DNA from: a virus
Direction: 5' to 3' (one strand)
Virus record (IMG/VR): IMGVR_UViG_3300027852_000031
Location: 102,380 to 166,379 of that record
DNA: 64,000 nucleotides
This document shows positions 46,454-47,716 of this stretch, one piece after another; position 1 is the first letter of the stretch, and each line of letters begins with the position of its first letter. The notes beneath the pieces were generated by a model. It searched no databases and had not been told where the DNA came from. It was given only the letters and a program-made list of their open reading frames with translations. The position numbers and the translations under genes were made by a program.

Positions 46454-47716
46454 TCATAGTTCCTTCGTTTTCTCGACAGTTTCTAGCAAACATTTATGTT
46501 TTTTGTCGCAGGGAGGGCAACTGTATGTTCCACAATGATTACATTCACAAGCACAATCTACACAGACACGTTCCCCGCAATCACTGCACGTCTCACATAG
46601 ACAATCTTTACAAACAGCTTCTCCGCAATATTTACACATTTCTTTACAATCGCTGCAAATACTATAGCCGCAACATTCACACTGCGTATCACAATTTATG
46701 CATCTATCAGAACCACAGCTGTTACATGTAGATAAGCATTCGCTGCATATTTGATCTGAGCAATCTTCGCATATTAAAGTGCACTCATTACACATAGGTG
46801 CATGACAACAGTTGCATGATTGAATACAATTATCGCAGTACCATTGTTCACAAGTATCGCACATTGCGCCATCGGCACAATTAGCGCATTGGATTGAGTC
46901 ACAACCGTCACATGACACCTGGTCGTACTCGTCTTTCCATTCTTCGCAGCAAACACAATAGAAGCTGCCTTCACGATCGGGGCTATACCAACTACTCAAG
47001 GGTGTGTGTGGTGACTCTGGATTATATGTCCTTAATATTTTTTCTACTAGGTCGAAATAATCTTCCAATCTTCCCTGATCTATAGCTAGACTTAGTGAGT
47101 ACTGACCATTTCCTTCACACAATTCTTCATCAGCGACGTGGGGATGGAAAAACCCATTATATGACTCTTCACCGGTTACAGCTATGATGCGCAAACTATT
47201 AATTGGTTCGATTATATCTATACTGATCCGGAAGTTGCCCAAATTTACATTTTCTTCGTCATCATCCAATATTATACTTTTGACGAGAATAGATAGCCGT
47301 CCATCTTTATACTTTATATCATCCCATCTTTTGGATATAACATCGATTTCTTCTATTAGTTGCCGCAACGACACCACAGTCGGCCTACTTGCGTTTGTTA
47401 GGTGGGCTATTACTAATTTTATATGGTCTATGGTTGTTGTGCACATATCTGGTATCATCTCTTGCGCAACACTATTATATACGGATTCGCTCAATATACC
47501 TTCGTGGTTCGTTTTATCCCACGGAGATCTTTGTATCCTTCTTGTTACCCCATAAAATAACTTATCAGTCCACACTCGTAATTGATTTATTTTATCATAA
47601 GCGGTATCTATAGCCCTATAAACTCTTTTGTTGTCGTATGACGAGCGGCTATCTAGCCTTGTGAGCATCCATGTTCTAAATTTATGGGCGACTCTGATCT
47701 TTATTTTTTTATTCAT
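46454..47716 (-). CDS. Prokaryotic E2-like conjugating enzyme with C-terminal CxxC-repeat tail
   Basis: FHPHVADEELCEG (HPN-like motif then Cys), YNPESP, 19 CxxC units. Confidence 0.75.
   Translation of the reverse strand: MNKKIKIRVAHKFRTWMLTRLDSRSSYDNKRVYRAIDTAYDKINQLRVWTDKLFYGVTRRIQRSPWDKTNHEGILSESVYNSVAQEMIPDMCTTTIDHIKLVIAHLTNASRPTVVSLRQLIEEIDVISKRWDDIKYKDGRLSILVKSIILDDDEENVNLGNFRISIDIIEPINSLRIIAVTGEESYNGFFHPHVADEELCEGNGQYSLSLAIDQGRLEDYFDLVEKILRTYNPESPHTPLSSWYSPDREGSFYCVCCEEWKDEYDQVSCDGCDSIQCANCADGAMCDTCEQWYCDNCIQSCNCCHAPMCNECTLICEDCSDQICSECLSTCNSCGSDRCINCDTQCECCGYSICSDCKEMCKYCGEAVCKDCLCETCSDCGERVCVDCACECNHCGTYSCPPCDKKHKCLLETVEKTKEL

Follow-up and report, generated by a model that had tools for sequence, protein, structure and literature searches.

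Gene cassettes for the conjugation of a ubiquitin-like protein (Ubl) in prokaryotes and phages usually lack a ubiquitin ligase (E3), and how they choose their targets is an open question. This question is raised by a gene in a 64,000-nucleotide stretch of viral DNA (hereafter, the window), which is the last 64 kb of the 166,379-bp IMG/VR virus record IMGVR_UViG_3300027852_000031, assessed as complete by CheckV. The gene encodes a 420-residue protein, labelled P0001, in which a domain resembling ubiquitin-conjugating (E2) enzymes is followed by a regular array of cysteine pairs, and it stands second in a dense block of four co-oriented genes, in the order Ubl, E2-like protein, JAB peptidase and activating enzyme (E1). 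A preliminary description of this DNA had taken the array for a possible built-in E3 or adaptor. We computed the sequence anatomy, the family distribution, the gene context, a confident fold prediction and the covariation of losses within the array, and we infer zinc as the metal, thioester chemistry at the E2-like domain and a recruiting role for the array. With a probability of roughly one half, P0001 is the E2-like carrier of a phage Ubl-conjugation cassette whose predicted zinc rod serves as a length-tunable appendage for reach and recruitment, and not as a RING-type activator.

Periodic cysteine pairs in the tail of P0001

The array lies at window positions 46454-46960, which correspond to residues 253-420 and the stop codon. 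Cysteine is strongly concentrated there: 44 of the 46 Cys of the protein fall within residues 254-409, so that Cys makes up 26% of the tail (44 of 171 residues) compared with 2 of the 249 residues before it. The CxxC motifs start at residues 254, 269, 277, 286, 294 and so on up to 400, with spacings that alternate between 8 and 7 and thus a period of 15, and the autocorrelation of the Cys positions has its maxima at lag 15 (26 coincidences) and lag 30. Overlapping CxxC matches number 20, compared with 10.9 +/- 2.5 in composition-preserving shuffles, and the order of the tail therefore exceeds mere cysteine richness. The 19 CxxC units plus a final HxC that the preliminary description had counted are exact on the translation, and the alternating spacings and the autocorrelation bear out its periodicity of about 15 residues. 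No tandem repeat was detected at the DNA level in the gene, which suggests that the repeats are old and diverged and rules out a recent tandem duplication as the origin of the array.

The tail can be parsed into a first CxxC or knuckle (k1, C254-C257), nine CxxC-x4-CxxC hairpins (k2-k19) and a terminal H407-x-C409. These 20 knuckles offer 39 Cys and 1 His as ligands for a predicted 10 Zn. The treble-clef-like array with roughly 9-10 Zn sites that had been proposed agrees with this parse, which leaves five spare Cys (256, 303, 348, 374 and 390). A logo of the units gives the consensus C-x-x-C-[G/D/E]-x-x-hydrophobic-C-x-[D/E]-C-hydrophobic-x-x. The array has a net charge of -20 over 159 residues (family mean, -0.125 per residue), because of which binding of nucleic acids by the rod is unlikely. 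When only the tail was modelled with AlphaFold2, a confident beta-hairpin fold was obtained, with a predicted local distance difference test (pLDDT) score of 95. Among homologues, the non-Cys positions of the rod are 16-27% identical, compared with 42-50% for the E2 core and 21-30% for the fast-evolving N-terminal helical hairpin; conservation within the rod is confined to the ligands and two hydrophobic positions, and the HxCLL cap is kept in the phage-like clade.

Zinc pairing suggested by lost knuckles

The pairing of the knuckles was derived from natural variants with decayed knuckles, which were parsed by hand. It was found that P0089 and P0125 are without k2 and k5, P0123 is without k6 and k9, and P0048 is without k12 and k15. 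In P0110 both k8 and k10 are half-decayed, in P0124 k10 is half-decayed and k13 is missing, and in the P0054 group and P0151 a half-decayed k4 accompanies a Cys-to-His change in k7, while P0047, P0109 and P0129 have lost k8 and carry a new knuckle after k10. All of these cases fit the scheme (1,3), (2,5), (4,7), (6,9) ... (N-2,N), and none agrees with sequential pairs or with closed modules of four knuckles. In the five clean two-knuckle losses, two knuckles picked at random would be partners with a chance of roughly 1/7, 1/9, 1/9, 1/21 and 1/17. Sequential pairing (k1 with k2, k3 with k4, and so on), which had first been favoured in view of variable loops at both ends, was dropped because none of the clean two-knuckle losses falls on such pairs. 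Closed binuclear modules of four knuckles were rejected as well, given that the commonest array has 10 knuckles and that insertions and deletions occur in two-knuckle steps.

The losses fit a putative daisy-chained version of the cross-brace known from RING, PHD and FYVE domains, with 10 Zn in P0001. Each CxxC-x4-CxxC hairpin would give its first knuckle to one zinc and its second to the previous zinc, joining knuckle i to knuckle i+3, and the four-knuckle case of this scheme, with the pairing (1,3),(2,4), would be the RING/PHD/FYVE cross-brace itself. The variation in rod length would be explained by the same scheme, since one added hairpin (15 residues) equals one added zinc. In contrast to RING, PHD and FYVE domains, which are closed two-zinc domains, the rod would be a continuous chain of 5-13 zinc sites, and it has neither long loops nor a terminal helix in each unit. 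Tandem LIM domains, such as those of LMO2 and PINCH, are likewise elongated rods of consecutive small zinc modules. LIM zinc sites, however, use sequential ligand pairs with loops of 16-23 residues, whereas the rod appears to interleave its pairs on spacers of 3-4 residues.

Iron-sulfur chemistry was considered for the rod, and the pairwise loss of knuckles argues against it. So does the lack of a cluster motif: a regular-expression search of P0001 found no ferredoxin-type CxxCxxCxxxC, and a single non-conserved CxxCxxCxxxxC occurs at residue 374.

The rod compared with known and predicted structures

Among solved structures, none matched the whole rod, either in Foldseek or in an exhaustive VIA search, where nothing reached Z >= 8. 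The best Foldseek matches for the whole tail were tandem LIM domains (probability 0.75-0.80), with template modelling (TM) scores of 0.23-0.29 and a root-mean-square deviation (rmsd) of about 10 A. In VIA, stretches of 46-50 residues could be placed on FYVE, Slp4, RIM, PHD and AN1 domains at a best Z of 5.0 and rmsd of 2.2-3.3 A. Sequence profiles of PHD, FYVE, RING, B-box and TFIIH-p44 gave sub-threshold matches, and no RING, PHD or FYVE model of Pfam reached its threshold for P0001 and 134 family members.

The only Pfam family that the array matched repeatedly is Siva (PF05458), through its Cys-rich region (profile positions 106-153 of 173). The matches were sub-threshold, in 11 of the 134 members with a best E of 3e-4; P0044, for instance, scored 17.5 bits against a gathering score of 26.2, and P0001 gave no match. 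It has been reported that SIVA1 is an adaptor that bridges the E3 RAD18 to PCNA (PMC4068132). Unlike P0001, Siva has few knuckles and no enzyme domain, and there is no evidence of common descent.

Predicted structures resembling the rod were found on other enzymes. In the ESM Atlas, archaeal HerA/DUF87 ATPases are among the models at TM 0.7-0.76 by query; an Mrr nuclease and two families, one of phage amidoligases and one bacterial with a LIM annotation, follow at TM 0.52-0.61. In BFVD there were 17 matches at E<=1e-3. Among these, phages are represented by an amidoligase and a "LIM domain" protein, and giant viruses by proteins that include a PARP. Just past this limit come a WWE protein (E 2.2e-3) and a giant-virus "Cd27-binding protein" (E 9.2e-3; TM 0.51 by target). 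A word-based search for the rod inside longer proteins was empty, which is weak evidence.

The E2-like N-terminal half

The AlphaFold2 model of the full-length protein, made with an alignment of 134 sequences, has a mean pLDDT of 93.8 and places a helical hairpin (residues 3-107) before an alpha/beta domain (residues 117-245). DSSP assigned to the model a helix at 117-130, strands within 134-179 and helices at 202-213 and 217-229. The elements of the ubiquitin-conjugating (UBC) fold, namely an N-terminal helix, a four-stranded antiparallel meander, an active-site loop and two C-terminal helices, are all found in this domain, although the scores are modest. The HPN-type motif of E2 enzymes, with a Cys within about 8-10 residues, is present as HPH-x6-C, the Asn being replaced by His; H191 and C200 are invariant in the 134 sequences, and P192 and H193 are conserved in at least 90% of them. 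Cys200 sits 9 residues after His191, a distance comparable with the canonical spacing of E2 enzymes.

The best globular matches in Foldseek were E2 enzymes, with UBE2L3 (probability 0.93, TM by target 0.45) followed by UbcH5 and UBE2S. The VIA search of the full-length model was dominated by coiled-coil matches to the N-terminal hairpin, which aligned with coiled-coil hairpins at Z 8-9; alignment to UBE2S gave Z 7.2 over 118 residues at rmsd 3.5. Structural neighbours that carry PF00179 (UQ_con) were found in the ESM Atlas at TM 0.51-0.54. At the level of sequence profiles, P0001 had no Pfam match at E<=0.1 and none in the PHROG and PADLOC scans, the UQ_con, Prok-E2 and BilB models included. 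One of the 134 family members scanned matches UQ_con at E 0.024, and Prok-E2 is absent from the 25 Pfam families listed for them. The domain is E2-like by its predicted fold and its motif, and a member of no curated E2 family. The E2 core named in the preliminary description is supported by the invariant HPH-x6-C, by the UBC-like predicted fold and by the Ubl, JAB and E1 genes beside it.

Distribution and length variation of the family

An exhaustive phmmer search with residues 1-250 (E<=1e-3) matched 1169 representative clusters, nearly all of which have the signature HPHV-x4-LCxGDG and a Cys-rich tail. Homologues P0003 and P0004 are 38% and 36% identical to P0001 over 95-99% of the length. 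The cassette is also present around the closer relatives of P0001, whose contigs are phage-like. A profile built from the commoner type finds proteins named only "hypothetical" and without a Pfam domain, and its organism-named members belong to the Planctomycetota (Pirellulaceae, Rosistilla oblonga, Calycomorphotria hydatis, Allorhodopirellula). The family is undescribed and lacks a model in Pfam, PHROG and PADLOC. Text searches of the literature and the papers Iyer 2006, Chambers 2023 and Gong 2024 yielded no account of an E2 carrying an array of this kind, an earlier one in Burroughs, Iyer and Aravind 2011 being conceivable. No match was obtained by tblastn of P0001 against the GenBank phage collection or by a scan of IMG/VR with the N-terminal 250 residues. 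Species genomes gave 0 matches to a degenerate DNA pattern for HPHV..LCEGDG and 0 confirmed loci with a single planctomycete protein as the query, an effort that falls short of a survey.

The number of CxxC motifs over the family ranges from 6 to about 27, with modes at 10 and about 21, in agreement with the earlier proposal that repeat number may vary among homologues. Exactly 10 are found in 180 of the 267 collected members, and the planctomycete mobile-element copies are fixed at this number, whereas the phage-like clade has about 13-26 knuckles (20 in P0001). Insertions and deletions in the alignment correspond to one unit of 15-16 residues. In a metagenomic protein of 733 residues, P0036, the whole architecture occurs in tandem, with two HPHV..LCEG cores that each have their own CxxC array.

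The Ubl cassette and its setting

The same gene order is found on contigs L002, L003 and L006 and in R. oblonga (CP036318, here L005), where all four proteins are homologous to the phage ones (28-44% identity). In the conserved cassette no RING, HECT or RBR gene was found, as expected from the earlier observation that the operon has no separate E3. The Ubl ends in KIEGA in the phage (47795-47812) and in KIEGAV in R. oblonga (L005 9697-9918); the one or two residues beyond the conserved Gly imply a Ubl precursor that is trimmed by the JAB peptidase. The E1 has GxGxxG at residue 38 and matches the E1-E2 and BilD models of PADLOC. The JAB protein has a sub-threshold match to Prok-JAB of Pfam and matches the generic JAB models of PADLOC. 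It is most likely, judging from these families, that the cassette conjugates the Ubl to proteins.

Table 1. Positions in the window of the parts of P0001, the other cassette genes and two recurrent neighbours
Feature	Position	Strand	Basis
Whole gene, 420-residue E2-like protein with poly-zinc tail (P0001)	46454..47716	-	Open reading frame and translation
Residues 1-110, long antiparallel helical hairpin (helices 3-56 and 77-107)	47387..47716	-	AlphaFold2 model
Residues 111-250, UBC-like (E2-like) core: first alpha helix, beta-meander, HPH loop, Cys200, two helices	46967..47386	-	DSSP, Foldseek, VIA, ESM Atlas
HPH motif, residues 191-193, counterpart of the E2 HPN motif	47138..47146	-	Conservation in 134 sequences
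Cys200, candidate thioester-forming Cys	47117..47119	-	Invariant in 134 sequences
Residues 254-409, predicted zinc rod	46490..46957	-	Cys positions, periodicity, tail-only AlphaFold2 model, unit logo, knuckle losses
Residues 410-420, C-terminal helix after the H-x-C-L-L cap	46457..46489	-	Model helices 401-406 and 410-419
Ubl, 77-residue beta-grasp-like protein ending KIEG-A	47795..48028	-	Translation; 32% identical to the R. oblonga cassette Ubl; weak ThiS-like Pfam match
JAB/JAMM peptidase with C-terminal Trp-rich acidic extension	45559..46452	-	HxHx7Sx2D motif at residue 94; 44% identical to the R. oblonga counterpart
Minimal ThiF-type E1, 228 residues	44898..45584	-	PF00899, E 5e-24; 42% identical to the R. 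oblonga counterpart
AAA ATPase	40439..42013	-	Pfam and PHROG matches; recurs near the cassette
DUF3150 protein	39425..40435	-	Pfam and PHROG matches; recurs near the cassette

A few kb away from the phage cassette (window 35442-42013) are genes for an AAA ATPase (phrog_8638; IetA-like in PADLOC), a DUF3150 protein and a DUF2997 protein. Their homologues in R. oblonga (26%, 19% and 42% identity, respectively) are directly upstream of the cassette (L005 5619-8984), and homologues are also near the cassette in L002. These genes may form a second arm of the system, of which they are candidate members. The R. oblonga cassette is further flanked by a serine recombinase about 6 kb upstream and, directly downstream, by a Piwi-domain Argonaute and a DpnII/MboI-like nuclease (L005 12748-16292), a setting that looks like a mobile defence island.

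In contrast to this setting, the P0001 cassette lies in the replication region of a lytic-type phage. The window also codes for a DNA polymerase, a primase, a DnaB-like helicase, a UvsX-like recombinase, a ribonucleotide reductase and five tRNAs with assigned anticodons (50583-54995). Beside these tRNAs, ARAGORN reported a tRNA-like gene at 60597-60677, which has a four-base anticodon (cgcg) and no assigned amino acid. The DnaB-like helicase (900 residues; 10016-12718) and the UvsX-like recombinase (779 residues; 14586-16925) are oversized, and the non-enzyme portions of both match phrog_9666 (unknown function) and phrog_4645 (endonuclease), which suggests inteins or homing-endonuclease insertions.

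Two further observations concern the cassette genes themselves. The acidic C-terminal extension of the JAB protein (45559-45900, residues about 185-297) contains a conserved Trp/Tyr-rich motif, roughly D-C-Y-x-D-x6-WWD-x4-WYLY-P-x3-W, that is also found in related phage contigs (L002 2103-3020 and L007 5658-6752). On L002, the contig of the closest relative, the JAB and E1 genes are separated by an inserted Cys-rich HNH-like gene that codes for 211-222 residues on the opposite strand (3017-3685), and the cassette thus tolerates interruption by selfish elements.

Of the known systems, the closest in composition is BilABCD, the bacterial ISG15-like system (Type I/II). Bil operons are described with only four components, a Ubl, an E2, a JAB peptidase and an E1, and with no E3 (PMC11601603; PMC10557695), and the components and their order are those found here (PMC11601603). 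Both Ubls carry residues after the conjugating Gly, and the position of the R. oblonga copy, next to the prokaryotic Argonaute gene on a recombinase-bearing stretch, is another likeness. The differences are nevertheless considerable: no PADLOC model matches the E2 or the Ubl, the E1 matches BilD weakly (6e-5) and CBASS E1-E2 models better, the phage E1 is half the size, and neither the 110-residue helical hairpin nor the predicted 10-zinc rod was found described for BilB. Bil systems confer defence against phages by the tagging of phage proteins; the present copy is itself encoded by a phage.

Eukaryotic E2/E3 hybrids, UBE2O and BIRC6, have a UBC core that is permanently fused to large non-catalytic regions selecting the substrate. 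Their appendages are unrelated to the tail of P0001 and include no zinc rod, and this likeness is a functional analogy only.

The role of the rod

We propose that the JAB peptidase would trim the Ubl after the Gly (KIEG|A), that the E1 would adenylate it and that Cys200 of the UBC-like core would carry it as a thioester. The C-terminal 156 residues, which do not make up an enzyme of their own, would form a rigid, strongly acidic rod with about ten zinc sites, of the Zn(Cys)4 type except for a final Cys3His. The rod and the variable helical hairpin at the N-terminus would jointly place the charged E2 on a target or a partner complex, and a role as substrate or partner adaptor is plausible. Recruitment is proposed because conservation of the rod does not extend beyond its ligands and two hydrophobic positions and because similar predicted rods occur on other protein-modifying and conflict-system enzymes.

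Several points weigh against this proposal. All matches of the N-terminal half to solved E2 enzymes are weak (Foldseek E > 0.02; Z 7.2), and P0001 is matched by no UQ_con, Prok-E2 or BilB model. The likeness of the rod to parts of other proteins compares predicted models with predicted models, and elongated repeats can inflate TM scores. The pairing was deduced from seven or eight patterns in hand-parsed variants, some of them probably of common ancestry, rather than from geometry. AlphaFold2 models contain no metal, and the choice of zinc over iron or another metal is an assumption based on the type of motif. Furthermore, the near-random conservation of the surface fits an inert spacer equally well, and the fixed length in planctomycetes favours one.

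The last two points lead to the alternative that the rod is a passive structural element, a spacer or ruler that makes the protein more stable, stiffer or oligomeric and takes no part in the choice of targets. Its surface is uniformly acidic and polar, and a count fixed at 10 knuckles over very divergent planctomycete copies suggests a length constraint rather than a binding code. However, a spacer needs something at its far end, where only a short helix is found, and hardly any of the more than 1000 clusters lacks the array, which is of double length in the phage-like clade. In addition, variable appendages on conflict-system enzymes, on which similar rods occur, usually mediate recognition. 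Recruitment and a passive spacer are the two close readings left. A recruiting or recognition appendage is preferred for its near-universal retention, its doubling in phages and its recurrence on conflict-system enzymes, and a passive role is considered rather unlikely.

It is less likely still that the array is a built-in RING-like E3, as the preliminary description had suggested in view of the missing E3 gene. In such an E2/E3 hybrid part of the array would fold back on the UBC core, or act in trans in an oligomer, and activate the discharge of the Ubl from the E2 in the manner of RING or U-box domains. The proposed topology of the unit, which generalises the RING/PHD cross-brace, the weak sequence and structure matches to RING, B-box and PHD, and the sub-threshold similarity to the Cys-rich region of Siva, described as a RAD18 adaptor (PMC4068132), would agree with this explanation. 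But Bil operons of the same order are described with four components and no E3 (PMC11601603), so that the lack of an E3 gene does not support the step from a missing E3 to a built-in one. A nearly unconstrained rod surface (16-27% identity) leaves no room for a conserved RING-type surface activating the E2, and no E2-contacting surface is visible in the conservation. The number of units, about 6 to about 27, the lack of any RING, PHD or FYVE model at threshold and the similar rods on enzymes unrelated to ubiquitin also argue against it.

A redox- or metal-responsive switch like those of Hsp33 and RsrA, a metallothionein-like metal store or an Fe-S binder that gates E2 activity is improbable. 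The Cys content of 26%, the five spare Cys beside the ligands and a BFVD neighbour named "prokaryotic metallothionein" could be cited in favour of it, but the strict periodicity and the confident beta-hairpin fold are at odds with it, as is the missing ferredoxin motif; the spare Cys are not conserved, and losses occur in discrete partner pairs as for separate tetrahedral sites.

Least probable of all is that the N-terminal domain is a non-catalytic UBC-like or ubiquitin E2 variant (UEV)-like fold in a cassette for sulfur transfer or other ThiS/MoaD-type chemistry, for although no E2 profile matches P0001, the structural matches to E2 enzymes are modest and the E1 is a minimal ThiF without a ubiquitin-fold domain (UFD), UEVs lack the catalytic Cys whereas His and Cys of HPH-x6-C are invariant here, the cassette includes a JAB peptidase, its Ubl extends beyond the Gly, and no sulfur-metabolism genes are nearby.

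Implications

If the recruiting appendage changes its length in steps of one zinc, its reach and specificity would be open to deletion and swapping tests, and the rod may show how such kits pick their targets without a separate E3. The architecture proposed for it would be a structural principle that is absent from the solved structures searched, in which the whole rod is unmatched and no part of it exceeds Z 5.0. Since the replication region of a 166-kb phage holds a complete cassette, Ubl tagging might also be deployed by phages and not by their hosts alone.

A more far-reaching idea, which we regard as tentative and possible at best, is that the rod is an extendable, hypervariable "poly-RING" recognition device that makes the protein a self-sufficient E2/E3 hybrid. 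Phages would then have doubled its length to reach or select targets of the host or of rival elements, as an offensive form of Ubl tagging for counter-defence or host takeover. If this were true, conflict systems would share the rod as a general module for targeting, carried also by amidoligases, PARPs and HerA/Mrr proteins.

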